Of a DNA stretch of 64,000 bases, positions 15,677 through 52,317 are shown piece by piece. Position 1 is the first letter of the stretch. The number at the start of each line of letters is the position of its first letter. The DNA is from an uncultured Anaerolineales bacterium (GTDB lineage: Bacteria > Chloroflexota > Anaerolineae > Epilineales > Epilineaceae), in the NCBI GenBank assembly GCA_964651245.1, contig CAZYVI010000016.1, forward strand, positions 11,492 through 75,491, given 5' to 3'. Below the pieces are notes generated by a model that worked only from the letters and a program-made list of their open reading frames with translations, made no database searches and was not told where the DNA came from. The position numbers and the translations under genes were made by a program.

Positions 15677-16212
15677 ACGTGTGGTCTCCTTCTCCCTCGT
15701 CCCTGTCCGCATCCCGCGCCGCCGGTCGCCTTGGGTGTGCACAAGGCGACCGGCGGGCACGGCGCGGCTCGTCGACCGCGGCCACGCCCCGCCACCGTCC
15801 TCGCGCGTCGCTTCGAAGGGCCGACGGTTGGATCGGGTGGCAACGGCGCCACCGCGGAGCGGCGCCTGGGCGGCAGTATAGGTCTGCCGCCAGCAAGTTG
15901 TCAACGACTCGTCAGGATCCGGTCACGTTGGGCCGTTGGCGCACGTTGTCCATGAAAAGGTGGCCCGACGCAGGTTCCCGTCGCCCGAAGAGCCGGTCAC
16001 ACCAGGAGGGCGATTGGCTATCGCCGTATCCCTTCCGACGTTAATAACCCGTGACGGCGACGTTGTGGACACCCCGGACCGAAACCCGGTCCGGGTCGGC
16101 GCCGTCACGGTTCGTCGGCCGCGACCGTAGCGGTCGGCGCAGCGCATCGTCACCATTCGCATGGCCGGGTCGCGGCGAGGGTCGCGGGCCGATCTCGAGG
16201 AGGAGCCGACGG

Positions 16213-25932: not shown

Positions 25933-28900
25933 CCGAGCCCCTCGACCCGGTCGCCGCCGGCGACGCGGGCCACCTCGCGTCGCGCGAGGACCGCGACGGG
26001 CGGGCGTCGGCGCCGTCGTGGCGCCAGCGGCTGACGTCGCGCCGGCGGGGCCCCACGACGACCGCGCTGCTGCTGGGCGCGATCGTCGCCTGCGGCTTCT
26101 ACCTGCGGACGGTCGGCATCGACTGGGACGCCGGCCATCACCTTCACCCCGACGAGCGCTTTCTCACCGACGTCGCCAGCTCGCTGGCGATGCCGAACGA
26201 CCTGCTGCACTACCTCGACACCGACACCTCGCCCCTCAACCCGCGCAACCAGGGCAAGGCGTTCTTCTCGTACGGCACCTGGCCGATCACGATCGCGCGC
26301 GTCATGGCCGACGCCGCCGGGCCGCTCGGGCTGGGGATGACGGACTTCGGCTCGGTCTACATCGTGGGCCGCTACATGAGCGGCGTGCTCGACCTGTTGA
26401 CCGTGCTCTTCGTGTTCGGGCTGGGCGCCGTGCTGTACGATCGCCGCGTCGGCCTGCTGGCGGCGCTGTTCACGGCGTTCACGGCCTTCCACATCCAGCA
26501 GTCCCACTTCTTCACCGTCGACGCCGCGTTGACCTGTTTCGTGATGTGGACGCTGTTCGGGTTGGCGCTGGCCGTCCGGCGCCGCACCTGGTGGCCGCTG
26601 GCGCTGGCGGGCGCGGGCCTCGGGATGGCCCTGGGGAGCAAGGTCACGGTCTGGCTCTTGGTGCCGATCGCCGTGTTGACGATCGTCGCGGCCGAGCTGC
26701 GGCAGTCGCGGGCCGAGACCGCGGACGCGGACACCGATGCCCGGCCCCCGCACCCGATGGGGCGGGCGGCCGCCAAGGTCGCCTTGCTGGGCGTCGTCAG
26801 CTACGCCGCGCTGCGCTTCGCCCAGCCGGACATGTGGGCGGGGCCGGGCTGGCCGAACGTCGTCGGCAACAGCGCCCGCTTCACCGAGGTGACGGCCGGC
26901 AACTGGCATCCGCCGAAGCTGTGGTTCGACCTGCAAGCGGCCCTGCCGGACGCACTCGAAAAGTACCTGCTGCCCGACCCGCGCTGGATGGACAGCATGG
27001 CCCGCATCAAGGGCCAGGTGACGGGCTTCGGCATGGACTGGCCACCCAACCACCAGTGGTGGGGCCGCAAGGGGTACCTGTTCCCGTGGCGGAACATGGT
27101 GCTGTGGGGCATGGGCCCGGCGCTGGGGCTGGCCGCCTGGGGCGCGTGGCTGGCCGCGGGCGTCGCGATCTGGCGGGGCCGGCGGCGGCACCTGTTGCCG
27201 TGGCTCTGGGTCAGCGTGTACTTCGGCTACACCGGCATCCAGTGGGCCAAGACGATGCGCTACGCGCTGCCGATCTACCCCGCGCTGGCGGTGCTGGCGG
27301 CGTGGGGCCTGGTCGCCTGGCTCGACGCCGCGCGCCGCGCGCCCGCTGACGGCGCGCCCGACCCCGCGCCCGTCCCCGACCGGTCGCGGCGGTGGGCCGC
27401 ATTCGTCTTCGACCGGCGCGTCGCCGTGGCCGCGACCGCCGTCGTCGCGCTGGGCACGGTGGTGTGGGGCACGATGTTCTCGCGGCTCTACACCCGCCAC
27501 CACAGCCGCATCGCCGGCAGCCACTGGATCTACCACAACCTGCCGACAGCGGTGGGCGTCCGGATCGCCGACGACCCGGCCGGCCTCTATCCGGGACCAT
27601 GGCTGCCGGCGCTGGCGCCCGGCGACCTGCGCACCGTCGACGGCGTGCGCTGGCCGCTCGACGCCGCGTTCACCGGGCCGATGCGGCTGCACCTGCCCGA
27701 CGAGTCGTGGCAACAGCACCTCACCGGCGGCTCGTTCGGCGCCCGCCCCGATCTCTGGACGCCGCGCCGCGGCGACGCCACCGACGTCGCGTCGCTGCCG
27801 CGGCTGACCGTGGACGCCGTGCGGCTGGCGTACGCCCAGGCCGACGCGGCCTCGTCGCGCACCGTGCGGGTCGTGCTCAGTCAGGGCGCCGCGTTGCGAC
27901 CGGGCGGCGCGCCGGAGCGCGCGATCGCCCAGGGGCGGGCCGAGGTGCGGGTCGGGCCGGGTGAGGCGGCGCTCGAGGTCCCGCTCGACGCGCCGCTGTC
28001 GCTGCACCTGGGCCAAGAGGTCTACGTCTGGGTGGCCGTCGACGGTGGGCCGATCACCTGCCGGCCGGCGCGGATGGCCTACGAGACGAGCTGGGACGAC
28101 ATCGTGCCCGAGGGCATGTACGGCTACGCCGGCTACGACGATGCGACCACCGACTGGGTCGACGGCCTGTTCGGCGTGACGAACCTCGAGATGTACGGCG
28201 AGGACTATCCGGACTGGCTCGACCAGACGCTCGACCAACTCAGCCGCGTCGACTACTGGGTCTCGTCGTCAAACCGCGTCTACGGCGCGGTGGCCCAGCT
28301 GCCGATGCGCTATCCGGCCACGATCGCCTTCTACGAGAACGTGCTGTTCGGCGAGACGCTGGGCTGGCGGCACCGGGCGTCGGTCCAGTCGTTCCCGAGC
28401 CTCGGACCGCTGCGGGTCAACGACCAGGGGGCCGAGGAGGCCTTCCACGTCTACGACCATCCCCAGGTCGACGTCTTCGAGCGCCCGACGCCGTTCGACG
28501 CCGAGGCGCTGCGGGCCTACCTGGCGCCGATCACCGCCACCCGACGCTGGTCGTTCCCGCCGGTCTCGCCCAACCCGATCGTGCGCTTCGCCGACGCGCT
28601 CTTCGGCCGGATCCCGGTCGACCGCGCCGCGCCGGCCGGCGCCACCGTCGACGGCGGTGCCGCGCGCACGCGCACCGTCGACGCCGTCCTGCTCGACCCG
28701 GCGCGGCTGGCCGAACAGCGCGCCGGCGGCACCTGGCGCGACCGGTTCGACGTCGACGGCGTGCTGAACCGGTACCCCGTCCTCGGCGTCGTGGCGTGGT
28801 ACCTCGTGCTGGCGCTGCTGGGCCTGGCGGCGTTCCCGCTCGTCGCCGTCGCGCTGCCGCGGCTGCCGGACCGCGGCTGGTCGCTGGCGCGGACGGCCGG

Positions 28901-31391
28901 GCTGCTGGCGACGAGCTATGGCGCGTGGCTGGCGGCGTCGACGGGCGTCGCACGCCACGGGCGCGGACTGCTCGTGGTCGCCGCTGTCGGCGTGGCGCTG
29001 CTGTCGACGGCGGTGGCGCGCTGGGCCGGCTTCGAGGTTCGCGCCTGGCTGCGCGAGCACCGAGGCCGGGTGGCGACGATCGAGGCGGTCTTCCTGGCCC
29101 TGTTCGTCGTGTTCCTGGCGATCCGCATGGGCAACCCCGACCTCTGGCACATCTCCAAGGGCGGCGAGAAGCCGATGGACTTCGCCTACCTCAACGCCAC
29201 GCTGCGCAGCGTGCGCTTCCCGCCCTACGACCCGTGGTTCGCCGGCAGCAAGCTGAACTACTACTACTTCGGCTTCGTGTTCGTCGGGGCGCTGATTCAG
29301 CTGACCGGCATCGTGCCGTGGGTGGCCTACAACCTGGCCATCCCGACGCTGGCGGCGCTGACCGGTACCGGCGTCTGTGGTGTCGTGATCGGGCTGGCCG
29401 ACCGGCTGGCGGTGCGCGCCGCGGTCGGGCGGGCGGCGGGCGTCATCGCCGCCGGCATGACGGTGCTCATGGGCAACCTCTACCAAGCGCCGTGGCTGGC
29501 GGCGCGGTTGGCCGAGGCGGCGCCGCCGATCGGCCATGCCGGGCTGCGCAGCGCCATGCTGCGCGTCGAGGCGGTGCCGATCCTGGGGCAGTTCGTGCAG
29601 ATGCTGCGCGGCGCCTACGCCTTCGCCACGGACCCCGGGGCCCGCAACCTGTTCCCGCTCGACTGGTGGTACTGGAACGCGTCGCGCGCCATCCCCAGCG
29701 TCAGCGGCGACGTCCAGCCGATCACCGAGTTCCCGTTCTTCACGTTCCTCTACGCCGACCTGCACGCCCACATGATGGCGATGCCGATCGCCGTGCTCGC
29801 CTGCGGCCTGGCGCTGGGGTGGGCCACGCCCGGCCGGCCGGCGTCGTTCCGCCAGCCGTGGGTCGCGCCCGAGCCGGTCGTCCGCCTTTCCCTCGGCGCC
29901 CTGGCGATCGGCGCGCTCTGGCCGACGAACACCTGGGACTACCCAACCTACGGCCTCGTGGCCGCCGGCGCGATCGCCATCGGCGCGTATGCCCGTTCGC
30001 GGCGCTTCGACGTGCTCTGGTTCGGCCGCGTCGCCGCCACGGGCGGCGCGCTCTTGGCGCTCAGCCTGGCGCTGTTCCTGCCGTACCACCGCGCCTACGT
30101 GACGCCCTATTCGGAGTTCCAGGCGTGGCACGGCTTCCGCACGCCGGCGAGCGCCTACCTGACGGTGCACGGCATCTTCCTGTGCGCCATCGCCAGCTGG
30201 GCCGCGCTCGCGCTGGCCGACCACCTGGCCCGCCGCGCCGAGCGCGACGCTCTGGCGTGGCGGCTGGCGCTGGCGCTCGGCGTCGCCGTCGTCGCGGCGG
30301 TGGTCGCCTGGCAGTGGTCGCTGCGGTCGTTCCAGGCCGACCTGCCGCCCGACGTGCCTCGGCCCGAGCTCGCCACGCCGCTGCTCGTGGCGGTGCTCAT
30401 GGCCGTCGGCCTCGTGCTGGCGCTCCACGGCGCGGCGCGGCCGGCGGAACGGCTCCTCGGCTGGCTGCTGTTCGTCGGCGCACTCCTCACCGGTTTCGTC
30501 GAATACGTGGTCCTCAGCGGCGACATCGGCCGGATGAACACCGTGTTCAAGTTCTACATCCACGTCTGGATCCTGTGGTCGATCGCCGGCGGCGCGGCGC
30601 TGGCGGCGCTGCTCGACCGCGCCGGCGGCGGCGAGTCCGGCCGGCCTTCGCTGCCGCGCTCCGGCGCGGCCGCCCTGGCCGCCGCGGCGACGCTCGTGCT
30701 GGTGTCGAGCGGCATGCTCTACACGGTCACCGCGGCGCGGGCCAAGATCCTGGACCGCTTCCCGGCCGACCGCTCGATCGGCGACGAGCGGGCGGCGGCG
30801 CTGCGCCGGCCCGGCCTGTCGGGGATCGACTACATGGCCCATGCCGCCTACGTGGAGTACGGCGCCGACGACCAACCCGCGGTGCTCGATCTGCGCGCCG
30901 ACCTCGAGGGTATCCGCTGGCTGCTGGAGAGCGTCGACGGCACGCCGACGATCCTCGAGGGCACCTGGCCGATCAACTACCACTGGGGATCGCGCTTCAG
31001 CATCTACACCGGCCTGCCGACGGTCATCGGCTGGGACTGGCACCAAAAGCAGCAGAAGGCGGCGATCGTCGACGACCCGGTCGGCAACCGCCTCAACGAC
31101 GTCCGCACGATCTACGAGACGACGGACGACGCGCTGGCCAACCACCTGCTCGACCGCTACGGCGTCGAGCTCGTCATCGTCGGCCAGCTCGAGCGGATGC
31201 GCTACGACGCGGCCGGCCTCGCCAAGTTCGAGCGGTGGGCCGAGCAGGGCGCGGTCGAGGCGGTGTTCGCCAACGACCAGCTGACGATCTACCGTCGGCC
31301 GCTGCCCGAGTCGCCGGCCGCCCTGCCGGACGCGGCGCGGTCGCCGGCCGGGGCGCGCGGCGGTCCGGGGCGCGCGGTGCGCCCGGCATGA
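25929..31391 (+). CDS. Giant (about 1820 aa) polytopic GT-C-type membrane glycosyltransferase-like protein (PMT/ArnT-like N-terminus with an 'HPDERF' motif; 'DUF2298'-like C-terminal half)
   Basis: Overlap-coupled ATG. More than 25 predicted TM helices. An N-terminal loop 'GIDWDAGHHLHPDERFLTD' carries a DE-type motif as in the GT-C fold. The C-terminal half contains 'GGEKPMDFAYLNATLRSVRFPPYDPWFAGSKLNYYYFG', which is shared with the next gene. Confidence 0.75.
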   Translation: MTEPLDPVAAGDAGHLASREDRDGRASAPSWRQRLTSRRRGPTTTALLLGAIVACGFYLRTVGIDWDAGHHLHPDERFLTDVASSLAMPNDLLHYLDTDTSPLNPRNQGKAFFSYGTWPITIARVMADAAGPLGLGMTDFGSVYIVGRYMSGVLDLLTVLFVFGLGAVLYDRRVGLLAALFTAFTAFHIQQSHFFTVDAALTCFVMWTLFGLALAVRRRTWWPLALAGAGLGMALGSKVTVWLLVPIAVLTIVAAELRQSRAETADADTDARPPHPMGRAAAKVALLGVVSYAALRFAQPDMWAGPGWPNVVGNSARFTEVTAGNWHPPKLWFDLQAALPDALEKYLLPDPRWMDSMARIKGQVTGFGMDWPPNHQWWGRKGYLFPWRNMVLWGMGPALGLAAWGAWLAAGVAIWRGRRRHLLPWLWVSVYFGYTGIQWAKTMRYALPIYPALAVLAAWGLVAWLDAARRAPADGAPDPAPVPDRSRRWAAFVFDRRVAVAATAVVALGTVVWGTMFSRLYTRHHSRIAGSHWIYHNLPTAVGVRIADDPAGLYPGPWLPALAPGDLRTVDGVRWPLDAAFTGPMRLHLPDESWQQHLTGGSFGARPDLWTPRRGDATDVASLPRLTVDAVRLAYAQADAASSRTVRVVLSQGAALRPGGAPERAIAQGRAEVRVGPGEAALEVPLDAPLSLHLGQEVYVWVAVDGGPITCRPARMAYETSWDDIVPEGMYGYAGYDDATTDWVDGLFGVTNLEMYGEDYPDWLDQTLDQLSRVDYWVSSSNRVYGAVAQLPMRYPATIAFYENVLFGETLGWRHRASVQSFPSLGPLRVNDQGAEEAFHVYDHPQVDVFERPTPFDAEALRAYLAPITATRRWSFPPVSPNPIVRFADALFGRIPVDRAAPAGATVDGGAARTRTVDAVLLDPARLAEQRAGGTWRDRFDVDGVLNRYPVLGVVAWYLVLALLGLAAFPLVAVALPRLPDRGWSLARTAGLLATSYGAWLAASTGVARHGRGLLVVAAVGVALLSTAVARWAGFEVRAWLREHRGRVATIEAVFLALFVVFLAIRMGNPDLWHISKGGEKPMDFAYLNATLRSVRFPPYDPWFAGSKLNYYYFGFVFVGALIQLTGIVPWVAYNLAIPTLAALTGTGVCGVVIGLADRLAVRAAVGRAAGVIAAGMTVLMGNLYQAPWLAARLAEAAPPIGHAGLRSAMLRVEAVPILGQFVQMLRGAYAFATDPGARNLFPLDWWYWNASRAIPSVSGDVQPITEFPFFTFLYADLHAHMMAMPIAVLACGLALGWATPGRPASFRQPWVAPEPVVRLSLGALAIGALWPTNTWDYPTYGLVAAGAIAIGAYARSRRFDVLWFGRVAATGGALLALSLALFLPYHRAYVTPYSEFQAWHGFRTPASAYLTVHGIFLCAIASWAALALADHLARRAERDALAWRLALALGVAVVAAVVAWQWSLRSFQADLPPDVPRPELATPLLVAVLMAVGLVLALHGAARPAERLLGWLLFVGALLTGFVEYVVLSGDIGRMNTVFKFYIHVWILWSIAGGAALAALLDRAGGGESGRPSLPRSGAAALAAAATLVLVSSGMLYTVTAARAKILDRFPADRSIGDERAAALRRPGLSGIDYMAHAAYVEYGADDQPAVLDLRADLEGIRWLLESVDGTPTILEGTWPINYHWGSRFSIYTGLPTVIGWDWHQKQQKAAIVDDPVGNRLNDVRTIYETTDDALANHLLDRYGVELVIVGQLERMRYDAAGLAKFERWAEQGAVEAVFANDQLTIYRRPLPESPAALPDAARSPAGARGGPGRAVRPA

Positions 31392-33898
31392 CCGCCGTGC
31401 TCGGCGCGGCGCTGGCGTGGTGGGCGGCGACGACGGTCGTCGGCCTGGCCGCGGCGCCGATCGCCCGGACGTTGATGCCGACGCTGCCCGACCGGGGCTG
31501 GTCGGTGGCGCGACCGCTCGGGCTGCTCTTGGTCGGCTACGCCTGGTGGCTGTTCGTCACCGCCGGCGTCCTGCCGAACTCGCGGCTGGGCGTCGTCGTG
31601 GCGATCGTCGTCGTCGCCGCGGGCGGCGCGTTGCTGGTGTCCGGCGACGCCGCGGCGTGGCGCCGCGAGCTCTGGCAGCGCCGCCGGCTCATCGTCGGGC
31701 TGGAGCTGCTGTACCTGGCGGCGCTCGTGCTCTGGGCCGTGTACAAGGCGTTCACGCCGGAGGTCACCGAGTCGGGCGGCGAGAAGATGATGGAGATGGC
31801 CTTCCTGTCGGCCATCCTCCAGAGCCCGTCGTTTCCGCCGAACGACCCGTGGCTCAGCGGTCACTCGATCAGCTACTACTACTTCGGCTACGTCATCCAG
31901 GCGATGCTCGTCCAGTTGACGGGCCTGTCACGCTTCGTCGCCTTCAACCTCGTGGTGCCGTCGACGCTGGCGATGACGTTGGCGGCGGCCTTTGGGTTGG
32001 GCTGGTCCTTGGTGGTGTTGTCCCCGCGCGCATCGCGCGGGCTGGCGCTCGCCGGCGGGGCGGTGACCGCCGCCGTGCTCGCCCTCGCCGGCAGCTTGGC
32101 GGGCTTCCTGGAGCTGGCCTACATGCGCGGCTGGCTGCCGGCGGCGCTGTTCGACCACCTGAACATCCGCAACCTGACCATCGCCGCCGACGCCTGCGGC
32201 GAGCCGGGCAGCGGGTTCGGCTTGGGCGGCGTCTTCCCGTCGCGGTTCATGTGGTGGTGGCGCACGTCGCGCATCATCCGCGACGACTGCCGCGACGTGA
32301 TCCACGAATATCCGTTCTTCAGCTTCCTGCTGGCCGACGTCCACCCCCACGTCATGGCGCTGCCCTACGCGCTGCTGGTGCTGGCGCTCGCGCTCGCGCT
32401 GTGGCGGGGGGCGTCGGCGCGCTGGCCCGGGCCGCGCCTCTGGTCGCCCGTCTGGCTGCTGCTGCCGCTGATCGTGGGCGCGTTGGGCTTCCTCAACACC
32501 TGGGACCTGCCGACCTACGGCCTCGTGGCCGGGGCCGCTTGGGCGGTGTGGCGCTGGCGCCGCGGCGGGCGGGCGCTGCCGGAGATCCTCGGGTTCGGCG
32601 TCTGGCTGCTCGGCCTGGCGATCGTGTTCTACCTGCCGTTCTATGCCGCATTCCGTTCGCAGGCGGCCGGCATCGGCGTGGCGCGCTACGCGTCGCGGCC
32701 CGACCACTGGCTCGTCCACTTCCTGCCGCTGGCCTTCTTGGCGACGACGGTGGTCGTGGCGGCGCTGCGGCGGCTCGGCGCGCCGCGGGCGCTGCGGTTG
32801 TGCGGGGCGGCGCTGGGCGTGGCGGCGCTGGTGACGGTGGTGCGGTACGCCGGCGCGGCCGCGCTCGTCCCTCCCGACCGCGAGGCCGGCTGGACGCCGT
32901 GGACGCCGTTCGCCGTGCTGTTCCTGGCCACGCTGGCCCTGCTGGCGGCGCTGGCCGACGCGGGCATCTGGGGCGCGGGCGGCCGCCGCGCGGCCGAGTC
33001 CGGGTCGTCGTCGGACACCACGTCCCGCGACGCGGCCGCGGCGGCCGTTCCGCCGAGCGCGGCCGGCTTCGCGCTGCTGTGCGTCGCAGTCGGGGCGGTG
33101 ATGGCGGCGGTGCCGGAGCTCGTCTACCTCAAGGACGTGTTCGACGACCGGATGAACACCGTCTTCAAGTTCTTCTTCCAGGCCTGGGTCCTGTGGAGCG
33201 TCGGCGGTGGCTACGCCGTGGCGGCCATCTGGACGGGGCGGCCGGCGGACGACGCGGGCCGGTCGCCGGCGCGGCGCGGACCGGCCGCGGCGCTGGCGAC
33301 GCTGGGCGCCGGCGGCACCGCGTGGTTCGCGGCGCTCGCGCTCCTCGGCCTGATGGTCCTCTACACCCCCGTCGCGGCCGTCTTCAACCGCACCGACGGC
33401 CTGCGCTGGGTGGTGCTGCGCAGCCAGGGCTGGGCGGCGTGGTCGGCCAGCCTCCACCTCGACGGGCTGCGCCACTGGGAGCGCGACAACCCGGACGACC
33501 TGGCCGCGGCCCGCTGGTTGGCGCAGCATGCCGCCGGCACGCCGGTGATCGTCGAGGCGGCCGGCGGCGGCTACGACCGCGCCGGGCGCATCGCGATGAT
33601 CACCGGCTTTCCGACGATCCTGGGCGCCGACAACCACGAGTCGCAGTGGCAAGGCACCCGGGAGGACATCGACCCGCGGCTGGCGGACGTCGAGGCGTTC
33701 TACACCCGCGCCAGCGCCGCCGAACAAGCCGAGATGGTGCGCCGCTACGGCGCGCGCTACGTGATCGTGGGCGCGCGCGAGCGCGAGCGCTACGCCGGCA
33801 TGGCGCCCGACCTCGACGCCAAGCTCGATACGTTCATGACCCCCGTGTACCAGGCGGGCCAGACAACGGTCTGGTCCGTCGACGACCCCGCCCGCTAG
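31388..33898 (+). CDS. Polytopic membrane protein paralogous to the C-terminal half of 25929-31391 ('DUF2298'-like / GT-C family)
   Basis: ATGA overlap with the upstream gene. 'GGEKMMEMAFLSAILQSPSFPPNDPWLSGHSISYYYFG' matches the motif of the previous gene. About 20 TM helices. A C-terminal soluble domain resembles the previous protein ('GTPVIVEAAGGGYDRAGRIAMITGFPTILG...'). Confidence 0.75.
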   Translation: MTAVLGAALAWWAATTVVGLAAAPIARTLMPTLPDRGWSVARPLGLLLVGYAWWLFVTAGVLPNSRLGVVVAIVVVAAGGALLVSGDAAAWRRELWQRRRLIVGLELLYLAALVLWAVYKAFTPEVTESGGEKMMEMAFLSAILQSPSFPPNDPWLSGHSISYYYFGYVIQAMLVQLTGLSRFVAFNLVVPSTLAMTLAAAFGLGWSLVVLSPRASRGLALAGGAVTAAVLALAGSLAGFLELAYMRGWLPAALFDHLNIRNLTIAADACGEPGSGFGLGGVFPSRFMWWWRTSRIIRDDCRDVIHEYPFFSFLLADVHPHVMALPYALLVLALALALWRGASARWPGPRLWSPVWLLLPLIVGALGFLNTWDLPTYGLVAGAAWAVWRWRRGGRALPEILGFGVWLLGLAIVFYLPFYAAFRSQAAGIGVARYASRPDHWLVHFLPLAFLATTVVVAALRRLGAPRALRLCGAALGVAALVTVVRYAGAAALVPPDREAGWTPWTPFAVLFLATLALLAALADAGIWGAGGRRAAESGSSSDTTSRDAAAAAVPPSAAGFALLCVAVGAVMAAVPELVYLKDVFDDRMNTVFKFFFQAWVLWSVGGGYAVAAIWTGRPADDAGRSPARRGPAAALATLGAGGTAWFAALALLGLMVLYTPVAAVFNRTDGLRWVVLRSQGWAAWSASLHLDGLRHWERDNPDDLAAARWLAQHAAGTPVIVEAAGGGYDRAGRIAMITGFPTILGADNHESQWQGTREDIDPRLADVEAFYTRASAAEQAEMVRRYGARYVIVGARERERYAGMAPDLDAKLDTFMTPVYQAGQTTVWSVDDPAR

Positions 33899-33906
33899 CA
33901 ACCCGG

Positions 33907-36900
33907 ATGGACGCAGAGATGGACGAGTTCACGACGCAACCCGACGACCGCGCGGCCGAGCCGCCGCGCGCCGACCGCGCCCGCCGCCGCGCCCGCACCG
34001 GGCCGACGATCGCCGAACGATGGGCGGCGTTCCGGTGGGACTGGGAGGCGGTGGGCTGGCTGGTCGTGATCGCGCTGGCCGTCGTCAGCCGCCTCGTCTT
34101 CCTCGGCGAGCGGGCGATGTCGCACGACGAGAGCCTCCACACCTTCTACTCGTGGCAGCTGGCCGTCGGCAAGGGCTACCGCCACGACCCGATGATGCAC
34201 GGTCCGATCCTGTACCACTGGACCGCGCTGATGTACCTCCTGTTCGGCGTCAGCGACTTCACCGCCCGCTTGTTCGGCGCCCTGAGCGGCATCGCCTTGG
34301 TGGCGACGCCGTTGCTGCTGCGCAAGTGGCTGGGCCGCTTCGGCGCGCTGGCGGCGGGGGTGCTGCTGCTGCTCTCGCCGTCGATCATGATGTACTCGCG
34401 CTACATCCGCCACGATATCTCGATCGAGCTCGCCACGGTGCTCATGCTCATCGGCTTCATCCGGTACCTCGACGACCGCCGGCCGCGCTGGATCATCACC
34501 GCGTTCGTCGGCGCCGCGATCGGCATCACCTCGGCCGAGATGTCCTACATCACCGGTTTCGTGCTGGTGGCCTTCATCGGGCTGGCGCTGTGGGTCGAGT
34601 GGGCCGGCGCGGGCGACGGCGCGCGCGGGCCGTGGGGGGTGCGGCTCGGCATCGCCGCCGTGCTCGTCGCGGCGGCCTTCGGCGTCCGGCGCCTGGCCGA
34701 CGTCGCCTCGTTGACCTCGATGCCCGCCGCCGCGCTGGCGGCGGTCGGCGTCGCCCTCGCCATCGCGCTCGCCGCCGTCGGCTGGCTGCTGGCGCGCGCC
34801 GCCGGCGCCGCCGGAAGCGACCGCGGCGCCACCGCGGTCGCCGGCGACCCGGGCTGGTTGACGCCGGTGAAGCTTGGGCTGGCCCTGCTCGCCGTGGGCG
34901 CGCTGCTGCGGCTGCCGCTCGACCCGAGCGCGGCGGCCAACTCGGCGCAGTGGTACCTCGGCAAGGTCGGCGTCAGCCTGATGGTGGCCGGCGTGCCGTT
35001 CGTGGCGGTCGGCGCCGTGGCGGCCTTCGTGCCGCTGCCGGCCGCCGCCGACCGGCTGGCGCAGCTCGTCGTCGGGGCGGTGGCGGCGCTGACCTACATC
35101 CTGTTCGCCGAGGGCTTCGTCAGCCACGGCGTCACCACGGCGTTCGACGCCGCGTACTACGCCTGGTCGATCGCCGGCGTGCTCGCCCTGGCGGTGGCGG
35201 CCGTGTGGCTGCTCCTCCAGCTGCCGCGCCGCCGCGTCTGGGCGCTGCTGGCCGTGGTCGGCTGGGCGCTGCTGGCATTCGACCTCGCCGTCCAGTACGG
35301 CGGCGCAGCCGACCGTTTCGCCGGCTGGCAGAGCACCAGCGCCATCGTCGGCGGCCTGCTCTTGGCGGTGGGCGCGGCGGTCATGGCGTTCGACCTGGCG
35401 GGGCGGGCCGCCGAGGCGCCCGCCGCCTGGCGGCGCTGGCTCGGCGCAGCCTGGCCGAACGCGATCGGCATCGGCCTTGGGATCGTCGCGTTCGCCCTGG
35501 CGGTGCGCGGCCAGGGCGACGTGTCGCACCTCACGAAGATCGCCGAGCCGCTGGCCGTGGCGTCGGGCATCGTGCTGGCGCTGGCGATCGGCGCGGCGAT
35601 GCTTGCGCCGGGCGCGCGGCCGGAGCGCGGCGTGTTGCGGCAGCTCAACGCCGTGCCGTACGAGGGGGTCGTGATCGCCGGCGTCGCGTTCATCGTGCTC
35701 TACCTGGCGTTGTTCACGACGTGGTTCCAAGAGACCGATCTCGCCAACGGCTTCGCCCGCTCGCTGAAGTACTGGTGGTCGCAGCACGACGTCCAACGCG
35801 GCGGCCAGCCGTGGTACTTCTACATCCTGGTCATCGGGCCGCTCTACGAGTGGCTGCCGATGGCGCTGAGCGCCGTGGCGCTGGGGCTGTACGCCCGCCG
35901 GCCGGCGCTGCGCTTCGGGCGCGGCAACGACAGCGGCGACGACGGCGCGCCGTCGCCGGCGGCGTGGGCGTTCGTGCCGATGATCGTGGTGTGGATGCTG
36001 GGCGTGTGGTGGATCTTCAGTTGGGCCGGCGAGAAGATGCCGTGGCTGATCACCCACATGGCCGTGCCGATGATCCTCCTGGCCGCGCGCGCCGTGGCCG
36101 ACCTCGGCGCGCAGGTCGACCTCGCCGCCTGGCGAGCCAAGGGCTGGCAGGTCACGTCGCTGACGATCGCGGCGCTGGCCCTGCTGGCCGGGCTGGTCGC
36201 GCGCTCGACGTCGCTGGCCGCGGCCGAGGCGGCGCGGCCGGCGTGGGTCGGTTGGGCCGTGGCGGCCGTCCTCGTCGTGGCGCTGCTGTCGGGCGTGCGC
36301 GCCGTCGGCGGCGAGCTCGCGCCCGCGGCGCGGCGTCACGCGCTGGGCCTCGGCGTCGGGATGTTCGCGCTGGCCGTCAGCGGCGGCTATGCCCTGCTGG
36401 CCAACTTCAAGAACAGCGAGCTGGGCACCGAGTACCTGGTCTATGCCCACGGCACGCCCGAGGACAAGGACGTCTACGAGCTCCTGCAGCGCATGGACCA
36501 GGCCCGGCCCGACCAGCCGCTGAAGGTCGGGTTCGACAACGAGGTGAGCTGGCCGTTCACGTGGTACTTCCGCAACATCTGCCCGCCGCGGGCGCGCGGC
36601 CTGGCCGCCGATCTGGCCTGCCTCCTCGGCCAAGGCTGCCCCGATCCGACGGCGTGCAGCGATTGGCGGGTCGATCCGAAGTACCTGGCCGACGGCAAGA
36701 ACCCGCCGGTCGACGTCGCCGGGCTCAAGGAACTCGACGCCGTGCTCGTCGGCTCGCCGAACTACGGCAACTTCGAACCGTACCTGCGCAAGGACTTCGT
36801 CGAGGTCGAGGTCAACCGGATGTACTGGCCCAACGAGGGATACAAGGGCCTCACCTGGAGCCGGATCCGCGACGCCCTCGTCGTGCCCGAACTGCGCGCC

Positions 36901-38214
36901 AACCTGCTGCGGATCATCGTGCACCGCGAGTACGTCGTCGACCCGCTGGCCAAGCCGCTCGCGCCCAAGTCGCTCGACGACTGGTTCTACCACGCCAAGA
37001 TGAAGCTCTGGGTCAAGAAGTCCACCGCGCAGGCGCTGGAGGCCACCGGTCAGGACTGGCCGGAGTGGATGAAGGGCGTTTCGATCGAGCCCGAGGCCGA
37101 CCACAGCGTGCCGTTCGAGATCGACCGCGCCTTCACCGAGGCCGACGGGCTGGCCTTCAACGCCCCCAAGGACGTGGCCGTCGCCCCCGACGGCAGCTTC
37201 TACGTGGTCGACCACGGCAACAAGCGCCTCGTCCACCTGGCGGCCGACGGGACGCTCGTCGCGGCGATCGACGCGCCCGTCCTGGAGTACAGCGACGACA
37301 ACGCCGGCATCCAGCCCAGCGCCTGGGGCGTCGGCGTCGGCCCGGACGGTGCGGTGTACCTGGCCGATACCTGGAACAACCGCCTGCTCGTCTACCGCGA
37401 CGATGCGTTCACCGAACGCACCTTCGGCACGGGCGGCGTCCCGGCCAGCGCCGATGTCGACCTCGACAAGCTCTTCGGACCGCGCGACGTGGCCGTGGGG
37501 CCCGGCGGCGAGCTGTTCCTCACCGACACCGGCAACAAGCGGATCATCGTCATCGGGCCGGACCTCACGGCGGTCCGTTCGATCGGCAAGGAGGGCAACG
37601 CGGCCGGCGAGTTCAGCGAGCCGGTGTCGGTGGCCTTCGATCCCGAGACCGGGGAGATGGTCGTCGCCGACCTCTGGAACCTCCGCATCCAGGTGTTCGA
37701 CCGCGACCTCATGCCGGTGCGGCAGTGGGCCGTCGACGGTTGGGGCAGCAAGGAGGCCGCGCACAAGGCGTACGTCGCCGTGGGGCCCGGCGGCACCGTC
37801 CTGGTGACCGACCCGCAGGGCGCGCGGGTCTGGATCTACGACCGGCAGGGCGCCGTCCTGGGCACGCTCGACCTGGAGAACGACCCGACCGGGCTGCTGC
37901 AGCCGATCGGCATCGCCGTCGCGCCGGACGGCTCGATCTACGTCGCCAGCTCCGAGAAGAACATCGTCACCCGCTACCGCTGGCCCGAGAGCCTCCGTGC
38001 CGCGGTCGGACTCGACGCCGCCCCGGCCGCCACGGCCGACCCCAACGCCGCGACCGCCACGGCCGGCTCGCCGGCCGCCGCGACCGCCACGCCGCCGCCC
38101 ACCGCCACCGCGGCCGACGCGGCGGGCGACGCCGGCGGGGCGGCGGGAGCCGACGATCCGGCCGCGGGCGCGCCGCTGCCCAGCCCAACGCTGGGCCAGG
38201 CGGCGCGCCCGTGA
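33907..38214 (+). CDS. GT-C / family-39-like (PMT/ArnT-type) membrane glycosyltransferase fused to a C-terminal periplasmic NHL-repeat beta-propeller
   Basis: N-terminus 'MSHDESLHTFYSWQL...HGPILYHW...LLLLSPSIMMYSRYIRHD' is the ArnT/PMT_2-like DE motif region. Many TM helices follow. The C-terminus has at least 4 NHL-like repeats ('FYVVDHGNKRLVHLAADG', 'VYLADTWNNRLLVYRDD', 'LFLTDTGNKRIIVIGPD', 'MVVADLWNLRIQVFDRD') and an Ala/Thr/Pro-rich tail. The start is 33907 or 33919. Confidence 0.75.
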   Translation: MDAEMDEFTTQPDDRAAEPPRADRARRRARTGPTIAERWAAFRWDWEAVGWLVVIALAVVSRLVFLGERAMSHDESLHTFYSWQLAVGKGYRHDPMMHGPILYHWTALMYLLFGVSDFTARLFGALSGIALVATPLLLRKWLGRFGALAAGVLLLLSPSIMMYSRYIRHDISIELATVLMLIGFIRYLDDRRPRWIITAFVGAAIGITSAEMSYITGFVLVAFIGLALWVEWAGAGDGARGPWGVRLGIAAVLVAAAFGVRRLADVASLTSMPAAALAAVGVALAIALAAVGWLLARAAGAAGSDRGATAVAGDPGWLTPVKLGLALLAVGALLRLPLDPSAAANSAQWYLGKVGVSLMVAGVPFVAVGAVAAFVPLPAAADRLAQLVVGAVAALTYILFAEGFVSHGVTTAFDAAYYAWSIAGVLALAVAAVWLLLQLPRRRVWALLAVVGWALLAFDLAVQYGGAADRFAGWQSTSAIVGGLLLAVGAAVMAFDLAGRAAEAPAAWRRWLGAAWPNAIGIGLGIVAFALAVRGQGDVSHLTKIAEPLAVASGIVLALAIGAAMLAPGARPERGVLRQLNAVPYEGVVIAGVAFIVLYLALFTTWFQETDLANGFARSLKYWWSQHDVQRGGQPWYFYILVIGPLYEWLPMALSAVALGLYARRPALRFGRGNDSGDDGAPSPAAWAFVPMIVVWMLGVWWIFSWAGEKMPWLITHMAVPMILLAARAVADLGAQVDLAAWRAKGWQVTSLTIAALALLAGLVARSTSLAAAEAARPAWVGWAVAAVLVVALLSGVRAVGGELAPAARRHALGLGVGMFALAVSGGYALLANFKNSELGTEYLVYAHGTPEDKDVYELLQRMDQARPDQPLKVGFDNEVSWPFTWYFRNICPPRARGLAADLACLLGQGCPDPTACSDWRVDPKYLADGKNPPVDVAGLKELDAVLVGSPNYGNFEPYLRKDFVEVEVNRMYWPNEGYKGLTWSRIRDALVVPELRANLLRIIVHREYVVDPLAKPLAPKSLDDWFYHAKMKLWVKKSTAQALEATGQDWPEWMKGVSIEPEADHSVPFEIDRAFTEADGLAFNAPKDVAVAPDGSFYVVDHGNKRLVHLAADGTLVAAIDAPVLEYSDDNAGIQPSAWGVGVGPDGAVYLADTWNNRLLVYRDDAFTERTFGTGGVPASADVDLDKLFGPRDVAVGPGGELFLTDTGNKRIIVIGPDLTAVRSIGKEGNAAGEFSEPVSVAFDPETGEMVVADLWNLRIQVFDRDLMPVRQWAVDGWGSKEAAHKAYVAVGPGGTVLVTDPQGARVWIYDRQGAVLGTLDLENDPTGLLQPIGIAVAPDGSIYVASSEKNIVTRYRWPESLRAAVGLDAAPAATADPNAATATAGSPAAATATPPPTATAADAAGDAGGAAGADDPAAGAPLPSPTLGQAARP

Positions 38215-38232: not shown

Positions 38233-38322
38233 CGGGTTAGAGGGCCTAACAAGACCACACGGCCACGGATCTCTACCGGGCCGAGGCACGTTGTCGCGCC
38301 GGTCTTGTCAGGGTCTCTTAGG
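38233..38322. repeat. Copy 1 of an approximately 90-nt intergenic repeat with internal inverted repeats (partner at 59975-60062)
   Basis: '...gagggcctaacaagaccacacggccacgga...ggccgaggcacgttgtcgcgccggtcttgtcagggtctcttaggg' is about 85 % identical to the second copy. The arms 'gacaagacc' and 'ggtcttgtc' are reverse complements. It lies between convergent genes. Confidence 0.5.
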
Positions 38323-40056
38323 GCAGCAGCGGGCACCCGACCCGCCAGACCGGGGTGTTGAAGATCGGGTGGTAGCGCTGGTGGATGTTGCGCACGGTCA
38401 GGCAGGTCCGCTCCGGGTTCATCGGCCCGGCGGGCTTGCCGGGGTCGAGGCGGTAGCGCCAGCCGTAGTACTGCTCGGGGTGGGCCAGCGCCGCCGCGAT
38501 GACGGCCGGCGGCACCTTGCGGCGGGTGTCCTCGCAGACGCAGGCGACCGGCGGCGTCGGCCCGGCCGTTGCGGTGGGCGTCGAGGGCGGGCGCGCCGTC
38601 GCCGTCACCGCGGCGGTGGCGGTCGGCGGCGGCTCGTCCGGCTCGCGGCAGAGCTGTTCGACGTCGCCCAGGCCGTTCGCCTTGGCGAACAGATGGGCGC
38701 CGACCTGATGGTAGATCTGCCGCCGTGCGGTGTTCGCGGCGCTCGGAACGTCGAACCACAGCGCGCCGGCCGACACGATGTCGAGCGGCGCGGCGGCGCT
38801 CGTGACGACCTCGCGGCTGGCGTCGATCCGCGCCAGGCCGCCGAACGCCGTCTCGTCGTGGACCGGGATGGCGCCGAAGCTCGGGCCGAAGTCCTCGGCG
38901 AAGTACTCGGGCGTCGTCTGGGCCACCCAACGGTCGCCGGACGGCAAGGCGATCACGATGTCGCCGGCCGGGATCATCGAGCCCTCGCCGTCGGGGTTCA
39001 GGCCGCTGGGATCGTAGAAGCCCATGTCGCCGTAGCGGTCGCGGAAGCCGAGCACCATCTCGCCGCCGGGGCCGAAGACGATGTCGGTCAGCATCGGCTG
39101 CGGGTTGATGTTCCAGCCGGTGCCGGGCGTCGGGCCGGGCGTGAACTCGAAGCGGTCGTTCCACGGCCGCCATCGGGCGGGGACGCGGGCGGGATGGTCG
39201 ACCACGCCGCGCTCGAGCGCGAGCGGGAAGCGGACAACCTCGCGCATCCCGGCGCCGTCGAGGCTCGAGGCGTAGACCCGCGCCTCGAGCTCGCCCGGCA
39301 GTTGCGAGCGCTCGGCGCTGGCGACGACGCCGTGGTAGAGCGTGTCGGCCGTCACCGCCAGGCCGAACGGTCGCGCGTCGACCGACCACGAGGTCGTCGC
39401 CGCCCCGTGGGGCAGCGTGCCGAGCAGCGCGCCGTCCTCCGTCCGGTAGCGGTAGATCTGCCGATCGGCCAGGTTCGTGACGAACAGCTCGCGGCCGTCG
39501 GGGGTCAGGTCGATGTCGCCCAAGCCCGTCCGCCCTACCGCGCCGCGGCCCGCCGCATCAGGGAAGTGGCCGCCCGCCGGATCGTGGCCGTCCACGCCCG
39601 CGTTGGGGACGGTGAGCCAGAGCGACGCGACGGAGCTCCGGATGTCGATCGCGTAGATCGCCCCTGGGCCGGCCGGGCCGAACGGCGCGCCGCGCTTGTG
39701 GTAGGCCGCGGCGTAGAGGCGCTGCGTCGACGGGTCGAAGGCCAACCCGTAGGCCGCGCCGACGTCGCGCTGCGCGGCCAGTGGGCGGACCGGCGTCGTC
39801 GCGCCGCGCCGGAACGACACGACAGCCGGCTTGTCCGGGTGCGCACCGCGCGCGAACTGCGTCGTGGCCAGGATCGGGTCCGGCTCGAGGCAGGCGCTGG
39901 CGGCGGCGACCCGGTCGTCGGCGGTCGCGGCCGGCGCGGCCGTCACGCCCACCGCGGCCGCCACCGCAGCCGTGGCGGCCCACCAGGCCAAGCTCCGCAG
40001 CGGCCATGGATCGGCGTCGACGAGGCGGCGAAGGCGTCTGGCGTGCGGTCGGTGCA
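38318..40056 (-). CDS. Secreted beta-propeller-like protein (YVTN/NHL/SMP-30-like repeats) with a Cys-containing C-terminal domain
   Basis: ATG at 40056 is preceded by AGGAGAG. Signal peptide 'MHRPHARRLRRLVDADPWPLRSLAWWAATAAVAAAVGVTAAPAATA'. 'DIDLTPDGRELFVTNLADRQIYRYRTEDGALLGTL'. A C-terminal 'CVCEDTRRK...RTCLTVRNIHQRYHPIFNTPVWRVGCPLLP' follows a TATA-type linker. Only this part of the 1437-aa track ORF is credible. Confidence 0.65.
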
Positions 40057-40300
40057 TCGTGTCTCTCCTGTCCGTGATGGCGGCGATGGTTCGTCGTCGC
40101 GCGGCCCGTCGTGCCCGATCCGCACCTGTCGCGCTGCGGGCCGTTGTCGGCTCCGGACGGCCGTGCTGGCGGGGCGTACGCGCGCCGCGACCGCCGGTTG
40201 CGCCGTCGGGTGCAGACGCTGCGGCCGCCAGCGCGGTCGATTGGCCGTATACTGCCGCGCGACCGCGGCCCATGCCACTTGACACCACCCGGAGGAATCG

Positions 40301-42685
40301 GTGACGACGCCTTCCAAGCTGCCGCGCATGACGCCACCGCGCCGCCGCTGGCGACCGCCCCGGCTGACGTGGTGGCCCGCGGCGAAGCGACACGCCCCGT
40401 CGACGACGGCCGCGCCGGCGCCGCCGCCCGCCGCAGTGGGCGCCGAGCGCGCGGCCGCGCCCACCGTGTCCAGCGCCGGGCCCGCGGCGCCGCCGGCCGT
40501 CGCCGCACCCTCGGCGGCGGTCGGCGACGCGTGGCCGCAGGCCACAGCAGCAGGCGTGCGGAGCTGGCCGCGGCTTTCGACGCCGGCCGCCCGCCGCGCT
40601 GCGGCCGCCACGGCTGCGCTGGCTCTCGCGCTGTGGGCACAGGCCACGATCGAGCGGCGCCTCGTCGCGCGCCAGGCGATCCTGGCCCTGCCCGTCGTCC
40701 TGCCGCTCGTCGGAATGACGGTTGCGTGGTGGTGGTCGCTGCGGGACGACGACCGCGCCGTGGCCGACGCGCCGATGCCCGTCGTCGCCGGGCCGGCTGC
40801 CGCGCCGGCGCGCCGGCGGGACGCGGCGATCGCGCTCGGCCTGCTGGCGCTGACGACCGTCGTCGCCCCGGCGCTGCCCGGACCGCTGTTCGCGTCGCTG
40901 GCGCTGATCCACTATCCCCTGGGCCCGACGAGCCCAGAGAACACGTTCACGGCGGTCGGCGCCGCGTTGTGGATCGTTGCGATCGTCCTCTACCTGCGGG
41001 CGGTCGCCGAGCGGCCGTCGGGTTGGGACGTCGGCGCCGTCGGCCGCTGGCTGCGGCGGCCGGAGGTGCGCGTCGTCTTCGGCCGCGAGGCGCTCGTCGT
41101 CGCCGCCGTGCTCGCCGTCGCCGCCGTCTACCGCTTCCACGACCTTGCGCTCGTGCCGCGCGCGATGACGAGCGACCACGTCGAGAAGCTCATCGACATC
41201 CACGAGCTGACCGGCGGCCAGGCCCGCGCCTTCTTCTGGCGCAACACTGGGCGCGAGCTGTTCCAGTTCTATTGGACGGCGCTCTTCGTCTGGCTGGGCG
41301 GGCTGCCGGTGTCGTTCCTCACGCAGAAGATCGCGATGGCGACGCTGAGCGTCATCGCGATCACCTTCACCTACGGCCTGGGCCGCCGCGTCGCCGGCCC
41401 GGCGGTCGGCGCGGCCGCGGCGTTGGCGCTGGCGCTGTGCCCGTGGGACGTCCAGATCACCCGCGTGGCGCTGCGGTACGAGCTCTCGGCCGTGTTCGCC
41501 GGCCTGTCGCTGTGGCTCCTGGTACGGGCGCTGCAGCTGGGAACGCGCAACAGCTGGCTGGCATGCGGCGCGGCCATGGCCGTCGGCCTGCACGGCTACA
41601 CCGGCTTTCGGCCGATCCTGTTGGCCGCGCTGGCCCTGGTGGCGCTGCGCCTGGGCTATGACGCGGCGGCCCGCCGGCGATCCGGCGTCGCGGCGCCCGC
41701 CGGGCTCTGGCGGGTCCTCGCCGGCCATGTCGTCGCGACGGCGGGTCTTGGGCTGCTGCTGCTCGCGCCGCTCCTGCGCTACGCCGTCGACCAGCCCGGC
41801 CTCTTCCTGGAGCGGGCCCTGACGCGCACGACCGGCGTCGAGCAGGCGCTCGCCAACCCGCCGCTCGTGCAGTTTGCGATCAACATGCGCCAGGCGCTGC
41901 TCATGTTCAACGTCCTGGGCGACAGCGCCTGGCTCGTCAACCCGGCCGGCCGCGTCGCGCTCGAGACGGCTGGGGCGGCGCTGTTCCTCCTCGGCGTCGT
42001 CACGGCCGCCTGGCGGGCGCGGCGCGGCGACTGGCGGGGCGCGGCACTGCTGGCCACCGTGCCGCTCATGCTGACCGCGGCGGCGATGGCGCTGGCGTTC
42101 CCCAACGAGGTGCCGCACCTGGCCCGCTCGGCCGGCGCGCTGCCGGCGGTGGCCGTCCTCGTGGCCCTGCCGCTCGGCGAGATCGCCCGACGGTACCAGG
42201 GCGCCGCCGGTCGGACCGGCCGGATCGCGGCGCTCGTCGTCGCCGCCGCCCTGTTCGTCGGGATGGGGCGCAACACCTGGCGGCGCTACTACAACGAGTA
42301 CCGGCCGCAGTACAACGGCTCGACCCACAACACGTTCGAGGGCGCCGAGGTGGCGCGCGGCTTCATCGCCCTCGGCGGCGACCTCGACCACGTCTACCTC
42401 GTCGGCTGGTCGGACGGCTGGGACTACCGGGCGATCGGCGTCGAGCTGGGCGACTTCGACTACGCCGGGCTGCTGTGGGGTCGGGAGGCGGACGGATCCG
42501 ACGCCGTCGACCAGGCCGCCGCCCATGTCGACGACCCGGCGGCCAAGCTCTACATCGTGGCAGGTCCCCGCACCGAGGCCAACGTCGACGCGCTGCGCAC
42601 GTTGTTCCCCGCGGCGGTGGTCGTCGCCCACCCGCGCCGCGACGTCGGCGAGGCGTTCACGACCGTCTACGTCCCGGCGCGCTGA
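40301..42685 (+). CDS. Polytopic membrane protein, glycosyltransferase family 39 / ArnT-like (putative lipid-linked sugar transferase)
   Basis: GTG at 40301 is preceded by GGAGGAATCG. A Pro/Ala-rich N-terminal region of about 100 aa is followed by about 12 TM helices and a C-terminal soluble domain. The true start may be internal. Confidence 0.6.
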   Translation: MTTPSKLPRMTPPRRRWRPPRLTWWPAAKRHAPSTTAAPAPPPAAVGAERAAAPTVSSAGPAAPPAVAAPSAAVGDAWPQATAAGVRSWPRLSTPAARRAAAATAALALALWAQATIERRLVARQAILALPVVLPLVGMTVAWWWSLRDDDRAVADAPMPVVAGPAAAPARRRDAAIALGLLALTTVVAPALPGPLFASLALIHYPLGPTSPENTFTAVGAALWIVAIVLYLRAVAERPSGWDVGAVGRWLRRPEVRVVFGREALVVAAVLAVAAVYRFHDLALVPRAMTSDHVEKLIDIHELTGGQARAFFWRNTGRELFQFYWTALFVWLGGLPVSFLTQKIAMATLSVIAITFTYGLGRRVAGPAVGAAAALALALCPWDVQITRVALRYELSAVFAGLSLWLLVRALQLGTRNSWLACGAAMAVGLHGYTGFRPILLAALALVALRLGYDAAARRRSGVAAPAGLWRVLAGHVVATAGLGLLLLAPLLRYAVDQPGLFLERALTRTTGVEQALANPPLVQFAINMRQALLMFNVLGDSAWLVNPAGRVALETAGAALFLLGVVTAAWRARRGDWRGAALLATVPLMLTAAAMALAFPNEVPHLARSAGALPAVAVLVALPLGEIARRYQGAAGRTGRIAALVVAAALFVGMGRNTWRRYYNEYRPQYNGSTHNTFEGAEVARGFIALGGDLDHVYLVGWSDGWDYRAIGVELGDFDYAGLLWGREADGSDAVDQAAAHVDDPAAKLYIVAGPRTEANVDALRTLFPAAVVVAHPRRDVGEAFTTVYVPAR

Positions 42686-50467: not shown

Positions 50468-52237
<1,770 letters not shown>

Positions 52238-52317
52238 GCCGCGGCTGAACGGGGCCGGCGCCAGCGCGGCGCCGGCGGCACGGGTCGGCCCGCGGCCGGG
52301 ATCGAGGGAGGCGCACC

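Follow-up and report, generated by a model that had tools for sequence, protein, structure and literature searches.

Why should a polytopic membrane protein of glycosyltransferase type carry an NHL beta-propeller at its C-terminus? This question is raised by the gene at 33907-38214 on the plus strand of a 64,000-nucleotide stretch of DNA from an uncultured Anaerolineales bacterium (contig CAZYVI010000016.1), referred to here as the window. In the first-pass annotation of the window the product was described as a GT39-like membrane glycosyltransferase of unusual architecture, whose propeller might recognize carbohydrates or proteins, or might act as a dimerization partner of NHL-bearing von Willebrand A-domain (vWA) proteins encoded nearby. 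Here the 1435-amino-acid (aa) product, called the target below, is assigned to the TIGR03663/Agl23 family as a GT-C membrane protein with an alpha/beta domain and an NHL propeller. The combination of a GT-C membrane domain with an NHL propeller is nearly certain, and the target is a further member of a populous, already catalogued and experimentally uncharacterized subfamily of Chloroflexota.

Results

The C-terminal region contains a six-bladed NHL propeller

The translation of 33907-38214 contains no internal stop along its 1435 aa. Because the G+C content of the window is ∼75%, plain lists of open reading frames are full of spurious long frames in all six frames, and real genes were therefore picked with a codon-position score based on the G+C content of third and second codon positions (GC3 high, GC2 lower). 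By this score 33907-38214 (+) is a single gene. An identical protein of 1431 aa (P0001), coded on a separate 5.4-kb ENA contig, is recorded from NCBI and ENA sources with its start at the ATG four codons downstream. The gene has two in-frame ATGs four codons apart, at 33907 and 33919, the second being the one used for P0001, and no clear Shine-Dalgarno sequence could be seen upstream of either of them.

NHL repeats were identified in the C-terminal part with the Pfam NHL model (PF01436), which matched in five stretches with an E-value of 1.3e-28 and 98 bits against a cutoff of 20. Two AlphaFold2 models, covering aa 1-1070 and aa 835-1375, were built with a 77-sequence alignment. The second has a predicted local distance difference test score (pLDDT) of 90.6 and a predicted template modeling score (pTM) of 0.86, and is all-beta at aa 1071-1358 (37117-37980, +), where ∼24 strands are modeled with a pLDDT of 89-98. 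This region has the fold of a beta-propeller and superposes on solved NHL domains. In Foldseek searches it resembled most closely the NHL domains of TRIM2, TRIM3, TRIM71 and Thin (E 1e-21 to 1e-19), with a target-normalized TM-score of 0.84-0.87 for those of TRIM2/TRIM3 (E ∼1e-21). When Brat and the PknD-derived Pizza protein were included, the matches covered E-values of 1e-21 to 1e-15 and target-normalized TM-scores of 0.78-0.87. The same set was found when a family profile was compared with PDB sequences, including TRIM71, PknD (E 2.5e-28) and Pizza (E-values down to 5e-95).

Alignment of the blades placed them at approximately aa 1080-1124, 1133-1176, 1184-1228, 1232-1276, 1281-1322 and 1326-1362. 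The four repeat peptides quoted in the first-pass annotation are indeed present, at aa 1098-1115, 1150-1166, 1203-1219 and 1251-1267, and belong to a propeller of six blades instead of four. The propeller occupies ∼290 aa and not the whole of the C-terminal ∼450 aa, as had been supposed; the remainder consists of an alpha/beta domain and a tail of ∼70 aa.

Three of the blades contain motifs that are invariant in the family: D-T-W-N-x-R in blade 2, G-P-R-D...D-T-G-N-x-R in blade 3 and E-P...D-x-W-N-x-R in blade 4. The invariant Trp, Arg, Asp and Glu residues of blades 2-4, among them W1156, R1193, R1212 and W1257, would fit a conserved ligand site, and the ligand may be a glycan. Recognition of a carbohydrate or a protein, as proposed earlier, is still the most reasonable idea for the role of the propeller.

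The membrane part resembles GT-C glycosyltransferases

Against NCBIfam, the target scored 200.7 bits (cutoff 126.25; E 4.3e-59) with TIGR03663, "flippase activity-associated protein Agl23". The match is divided into two stretches because a transmembrane (TM) insertion interrupts the membrane domain, the best stretch being aa 52-232. Pfam PMT_2 (PF13231) was matched at aa 98-231 with 36.5 bits against a cutoff of 26.1. Neither PMT (PF02366) nor MIR was matched by the target at E ≤ 1, so it is not placed among the GT39 PMT proteins, and a precomputed PF02366 match is found in some of its homologs. The earlier label "GT39-like" was thus loose: the GT-C membrane domain of PMT_2 type stands, and the protein scores as TIGR03663/Agl23 rather than as GT39.

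When the target was aligned with 20 homologs, a conserved N-terminal membrane module (aa 26-230) could be distinguished from the variable, hydrophobic insertion that comes after it (aa 235-575). Both the second membrane half (aa 576-835) and the soluble region (aa 835-1360) are again conserved, but the Ala/Pro/Thr-rich tail is not. The N-terminal GT-C module (aa 46-234; 34042-34608, +) comprises TM1, a first extracytoplasmic loop with amphipathic helices, and TM2-TM6. Conservation was read from a 77-member family alignment and a 13-sequence alignment. The motif R-x-M-S-H-D-E-S-L-H (aa 69-78) is nearly invariant, and H98-G99-P100, R121, R165 and R168 are either invariant or shared by at least 90% of the sequences (alignments A2 and A3). 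Two acidic residues of the motif, Asp74-Glu75 (34126-34131, +), are putatively catalytic and belong to the first extracytoplasmic loop. This pair is conserved in at least 90% of the 77 family members and invariant among the 13 sequences, and we take it to be the equivalent of the DE motif of PMT/ArnT-type GT-C enzymes. The TIGRFAMs signature of TIGR03663 presumably consists of an invariant N-terminal DE, HGP and two Arg residues, and all of these are present in the target.

The variable hydrophobic insertion (aa 235-575; 34609-35631, +) is rich in Ala, Gly, Val and Leu and adds ∼ten TM helices; alignment occupancy drops to 0.06-0.7 in this region. The C-terminal part of the membrane domain (aa 576-835; 35632-36411, +) is conserved, with invariant columns and a pLDDT of 80-98, and contains the long, presumably extracytoplasmic loop Y622-W623...R631-G-x-Q634-P635 and the motif A707-G-E-K-M-P-W713.

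The model of aa 1-1070 has a pLDDT of 79.9 and a pTM of 0.83. Confidence is mostly high over aa 31-230 (pLDDT 84-98, down to 72 at aa 91-100) and low over aa 301-422. When this model was compared with the PDB by Foldseek, the top matches were all GT-C glycosyltransferases, namely ArnT, AglB, Pmt1/Pmt2 and Pmt4, each with a probability of 1.00 and E-values of 9e-4 to 7e-3, and further matches were found to STT3/OST, PglB, AftD, ALG9 and EmbA/B with probabilities of 0.33-0.99. The N-terminal module overlays those of Pmt1/Pmt2/Pmt4 over ∼215 columns at 3.9-4.6 Å. The membrane domain is polytopic, its modeled fold is like that of solved GT-C enzymes and its first outer loop carries an acidic motif, all as expected of a GT-C protein.

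The soluble domains are predicted to face outwards

Counting of the predicted helices gave ∼23 membrane spans and placed the N-terminus in the cytoplasm and the C-terminus on the outer side of the membrane. The Arg-rich loops DDRRPR, QLPRRR, ARRPALRFGR and APAARRH all lie on the side of the N-terminus, in a positive-inside pattern. Based on the helix count and this pattern, the MSHDESLH loop, the YW...RGxQP loop and the whole C-terminal soluble region are predicted to be extracytoplasmic. The insertion would leave this topology unchanged, since its number of helices (∼ten) is even.

Between the membrane domain and the propeller an alpha/beta domain could be identified at aa 847-1046 (36445-37044, +), in which helices alternate with strands in the AlphaFold2 model. 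Its pLDDT of ∼66-94 reaches its minimum at an insert with four cysteines (C892, C905, C911 and C917; 36580-36657). Alignment occupancy of 0.31-0.64 indicates that approximately one third to two thirds of the aligned homologs have this insert region, and possible disulfides within it would fit an extracytoplasmic location. The protein ends in a low-complexity tail rich in Ala, Pro, Thr and Gly (aa 1365-1435; 37999-38211, +), as seen in the translation, with an alignment occupancy of 0.3-0.4.

The domain combination is common in Chloroflexota

The view that a GT-C core fused to a propeller is an unusual architecture could not be upheld. When the full-length target was searched against 5.8 billion proteins, PMT_2 (PF13231) and NHL (PF01436) were both present in 119 of the 120 listed matches (129 matches in total), and the named ones came from Ardenticatenales, Anaerolineae/Anaerolineales, Caldilineaceae and "Chloroflexi". 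The bacterium carrying the target itself appears to be a relative of Ardenticatenales. The combination is already reflected in public product names: such proteins are called "TIGR03663 family protein" or "flippase activity-associated protein Agl23" at NCBI, and [quoted passage not shown] at JGI. A scan of GTDB with one genome per species identified 25 species genomes coding for a PMT_2 plus NHL protein, and all of those classified below domain level belong to Chloroflexota, mostly to the class Anaerolineae.

Because the propeller would bias the count, an exhaustive search of 1.84 billion cluster representatives (50% identity) was performed with the second half of the membrane domain only (aa 590-850), which returned 886 clusters at E ≤ 1e-3, of which 373 also passed E ≤ 1e-10. 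The best 150 representatives were then screened with two hidden Markov models (HMMs), one for the alpha/beta domain and one for the propeller. Both domains were found in 81 of these and the alpha/beta domain only in 44, which brings the matches of the alpha/beta-domain HMM to 125; neither was found in 25, mostly short entries that are probably fragments. Among the proteins of at least 900 aa in this set, 68 of 70 have the propeller. When the N-terminal 210 aa were used as query, almost all matches were short metagenomic fragments that were uninformative on architecture. From the domain counts of the 150 representatives it follows that the alpha/beta domain is the standard outer domain of the family, and that the NHL propeller is a very common addition that marks a large subfamily. 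A survey of the literature on TIGR03663, DUF2298 or NHL-repeat GT-C glycosyltransferases returned nothing relevant.

Two TIGR03662 genes lie directly upstream

The target closes a compact run of plus-strand genes that starts with a methyltransferase gene (24916-25932). The second gene of the run (25929-31391, +) encodes an 1820-aa fusion, in which a GT-C module of PMT/PMT_2 type (aa 140-256) is combined with a TIGR03662 "Chlor_Arch_YYY"/DUF2298 domain (aa 952-1789; 500.6 bits for TIGR03662). It overlaps both the end of the methyltransferase gene and the start of the next gene by 4 nt. This next gene (31388-33898, +) encodes an 836-aa TIGR03662/DUF2298 membrane protein (DUF2298 E 1.4e-100; TIGR03662 457.4 bits) and stops 8 nt before the start codon of the target. 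The target therefore shares with other TIGR03663 members the property of adjoining a TIGR03662 gene, having two of them directly upstream.

Synteny was analyzed by tblastn of the window proteins against 25 related loci. The order fusion, DUF2298 gene and TIGR03663-NHL gene was also found in 10 of these (L002, L004-L009, L013, L020 and L022), and the 1820-aa fusion is kept at 43-50% identity in L004-L008. On the other side of the target, a PMT_2-like multi-pass membrane protein of ∼709 aa with an uncertain start is encoded at 40556-42685 (+); its PMT_2 match is below threshold (E 1.9e-4; 22.1 against 26.1 bits), and homologs lie by the same cluster, often adjacent to it, in L002, L004, L006, L008, L009 and L022. 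The conserved partners of the target are thus the two upstream TIGR03662 membrane proteins and this PMT_2-like gene. A conserved linkage of the methyltransferase gene was also considered and rejected, as no homolog could be identified in any of the 25 loci.

In five loci (L002-L005 and L007) an extra multi-pass gene of ∼575-606 aa lies between the DUF2298 gene and the ortholog of the target (8043-9770 in L005 and 8020-9840 in L007). Its product is weakly similar to the N-terminal module of TIGR03663 (32% identity over 90 aa). The window does not contain this gene, the DUF2298 gene and the target being separated by 8 nt only. Scanning the region of 24-43 kb for promoters and terminators gave no excess of sites over shuffled sequence, which was to be expected with a G+C content of 75%.

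Two other parts of the window were noted. At 1056-3863 (+) an envelope glycan-handling gene encodes a 935-aa membrane protein with a Wzy_C/O-antigen-ligase domain (E 2e-22), which also weakly matches an exosortase-associated putative O-glycosylation ligase. The region of 50468-57224 (+) contains a SecD-like gene (50468-52237) and a SecF-like gene (56256-57224), with a CBS-domain gene and an ABC-2 transporter set of one ATPase and two permeases between them.

Discussion

A proposed transferase with an outer acceptor-binding module

On balance we lean towards the reading that the target is an outward-facing GT-C glycosyltransferase that depends on polyprenyl-phosphate-linked sugars and carries an outer acceptor-binding module, and that is perhaps also a translocator of lipid-linked sugars. 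This is suggested by the GT-C fold, by the acidic residues conserved in outer loop 1 and by the link of the family to polyprenyl-linked sugars, which is drawn from the naming of TIGR03663 after Agl23 in NCBIfam. In such a mechanism the membrane domain would first bind a polyprenyl-phosphate-linked sugar at the outer leaflet of the cytoplasmic membrane, and might also help the lipid-linked sugar across the membrane like archaeal Agl23. The sugar would then be passed to an extracytoplasmic acceptor, either a cell-envelope glycan or a secreted protein, which the alpha/beta domain and the propeller, lying above the active site, would capture or position. The target would work together with the co-transcribed TIGR03662 (YYY/DUF2298) membrane proteins, and not with the NHL-vWA proteins.

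Several observations weigh against this reading. The only experimental data for the family, those on archaeal Agl23, favor flipping and not transfer. Global TM-scores against solved GT-C structures are low (0.16-0.33), for which the extra helices are likely one reason, and a profile of the membrane part found no solved relative among PDB sequences, only designed helical bundles at E ∼0.4. The predicted topology comes from a manual count of modeled helices. No GT2/Dpm1-like synthase of polyprenyl-phosphate sugars could be found among the genes scanned in the window, a few genes at 58-64 kb lying outside the scan. Finally, 44 of the best 150 representatives have the alpha/beta domain without NHL repeats, many of them being 620-870 aa long and ending just after the alpha/beta domain. 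The core function may therefore not need the propeller, and some of these 44 entries are perhaps truncated.

Transfer or flipping

The main rival explanation is that the target is mainly a flippase or scramblase of lipid-linked sugars or oligosaccharides like archaeal Agl23, and that the outer alpha/beta and NHL domains only dock it to downstream glycosylation machinery such as the TIGR03662 proteins. We regard this as possible, though not probable. The name of the NCBIfam family, whose cutoff the target exceeds, points in this direction. Purified Agl23 of Haloarcula hispanica, which its authors consider a putative hexose-P-dolichol flippase, translocates lipid-linked oligosaccharide when reconstituted into proteoliposomes; M5GN2-PP-Dol/Phy and M3GN2-PP-Phy are flipped by it in liposomes, and it also rescues yeast rft1-delta (PMC11182771). 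On the other hand, the target has the fold of a GT-C transferase, the invariant acidic pair of its first outer loop is also that of such enzymes, and a scramblase is not expected to need a large conserved extracytoplasmic domain of ligand-binding type. The presence of a propeller, predicted to face outwards, in over half of the closest representatives suggests that a specific extracellular ligand is engaged, which is more in keeping with a transferase than with flipping alone. Flipping and transfer are not mutually exclusive.

Both activities are combined in a more far-reaching proposal, which is speculative and rather unlikely. In this proposal the NHL-bearing TIGR03663 proteins and the TIGR03662 "YYY" proteins would together make up an undescribed machinery for extracytoplasmic glycosylation in Chloroflexota. 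A single GT-C protein would both translocate and transfer the sugar, and the conserved Trp/Arg-rich face of blades 2-4 would select the acceptor, a specific envelope glycan or a Pro/Thr-rich secreted protein.

Other explanations for the propeller

An enzymatic activity of the propeller, which would make the protein bifunctional, is very improbable; the propeller would then be a metal-dependent lyase or lactonase similar in type to PAL, SGL or strictosidine synthase. The Foldseek and profile searches also matched peptidyl-alpha-hydroxyglycine alpha-amidating lyase (PAL; 3fvz, E 2e-17) and streptogramin B lyase, and weak Pfam matches to SGL, Phytase-like and SSL_N were obtained for the target or its homologs. 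Against this, the best matches of the propeller are non-catalytic NHL binding domains (TRIM2/3/71, Thin, Brat and PknD-derived Pizza), and among the listed residues that are invariant in the family (Asp, Thr, Trp, Gly, Pro, Arg or Glu) there is no His. The metal site of PAL is His-based, and a PAL-like site is not evident in the propeller because no invariant His is found there, although this argument is indirect.

Equally hard to sustain is the idea that the propeller mimics, or dimerizes with, the NHL domains of the NHL-vWA proteins and that these are its substrates or partners. Six vWA-domain proteins are encoded in the window, at 4154-7573 (-), 7663-11022 (-), 11036-13444 (-), 13745-15760 (-), 16213-17670 (+) and 22920-24770 (+). 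Most of them have two VWA stretches, and those at 4154-7573 and 7663-11022 additionally have N-terminal NHL repeats. The propeller thus shares its Pfam repeat class with proteins encoded ∼23-30 kb away on the same contig, and a weak pairwise match was obtained (29-32% identity over 156-171 aa; E ∼5e-9 in a tiny database), which reflects likeness of repeat class only. However, these genes lie 23-30 kb off on the opposite strand, with housekeeping genes such as lepA in between, and the propeller is far closer to the orthologous propellers of other genomes (45-57% identity) than to those of its neighbors. An origin of the propeller as a recent duplicate from the NHL-vWA neighbors was likewise considered and rejected at an identity of ∼30%. 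By tblastn, none of the six vWA proteins has a separate homolog in the 25 related loci. Matches of NHL-vWA type came only from the ortholog's own propeller in 24 of these loci, and L022 contains one further NHL-like stretch without a vWA match. The suggested partnership therefore has no comparative support.

The same repeat class had also been assigned to the neighboring protein at 38318-40057 (-), and this part of the claim did not hold. Pfam gave nothing relevant for this protein even at E ≤ 10, and a family-specific NHL HMM gave only E 0.066 in a 12-sequence set. It is a 579-aa protein of no Pfam or NCBIfam family, encoded convergently to the target and without a homolog in the related loci. 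It carries a Pro/Thr-rich stretch (PPPTATAAVTATARPPSTPTATAGPTPP), and the tail of the target is likewise Ala/Pro/Thr-rich.

That the fusion is an artefact of assembly or sequencing, two genes joined in error or separated by a missed stop or frameshift, has virtually no chance of being true and is already refuted by the data, because the reading frame is continuous, the identical protein is on record from a separate ENA contig and both parts occur together in nearly all long homologs (68 of the 70 representatives of at least 900 aa).

Comparison with known systems

The finding itself is ordinary, as the subfamily is well populated and its domain combination already appears in automated product names. 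In a wider context it is of modest but real value: bacterial TIGR03663/TIGR03662 pairs are without a defined function, and the biochemistry of the family is limited to flipping by archaeal Agl23. Interest centers on which molecules are glycosylated by the TIGR03662/TIGR03663 system of Chloroflexota, and on whether members of the family are transferases, flippases or both. As a soluble domain, the propeller could be expressed in a search for the acceptor.

With Agl23, known here by the family HMM and the literature, the target shares a score above the TIGR03663 cutoff, the DE, HGP and Arg residues, the adjoining TIGR03662 genes and, presumably, a link to polyprenyl-phosphate sugars. It differs in being bacterial (Chloroflexota), in its ∼ten extra TM helices and in the NHL propeller that follows the alpha/beta domain. 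The NHL-bearing TIGR03663 proteins of Chloroflexota, for example P0003 of an Ardenticatenales bacterium (67% identity), have the same domain order and the same TIGR03662 operon context. Other Chloroflexota members are ∼970-1300 aa long, whereas the target and its closest relatives reach 1380-1460 aa and have a longer TM insertion. Unlike five of the related loci (L002-L005 and L007), the window lacks a short TIGR03663-like paralog.

Pmt1/Pmt2 and Pmt4 (GT39) and ArnT (GT83) resemble the target in their GT-C fold and in having an acidic pair within outer loop 1, and the target scores above the PMT_2 threshold. The PMTs carry a MIR beta-trefoil as outer binding domain and are therefore similar in concept, combining a GT-C core with a beta-rich binding domain that faces outwards. 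In contrast to this loop-inserted trefoil, the extra domain of the target is a C-terminal NHL propeller, and sequence identity is 14-19%. TMTC1-4 are O-mannosyltransferases of the endoplasmic reticulum with luminal TPR repeats, and mycobacterial Emb/AftD are GT-C enzymes with C-terminal carbohydrate-binding modules. In these proteins, too, the GT-C core is followed by a large C-terminal outer repeat or binding domain that is thought to select the acceptor. The appended domain is of TPR or carbohydrate-binding type instead of NHL, and there is no close sequence kinship to the target. An appended outer binding domain would thus not surprise a GT-C specialist. For the propeller, the nearest parallel is the extracellular sensor domain of Mycobacterium tuberculosis PknD (PDB 1rwi), from which the Pizza designs were derived. 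It, too, is a six-bladed NHL propeller that an anchored protein presents on the outer side of a bacterial membrane. A single TM helix joins it to a Ser/Thr kinase in PknD, whereas the propeller of the target is carried by a polytopic GT-C domain.

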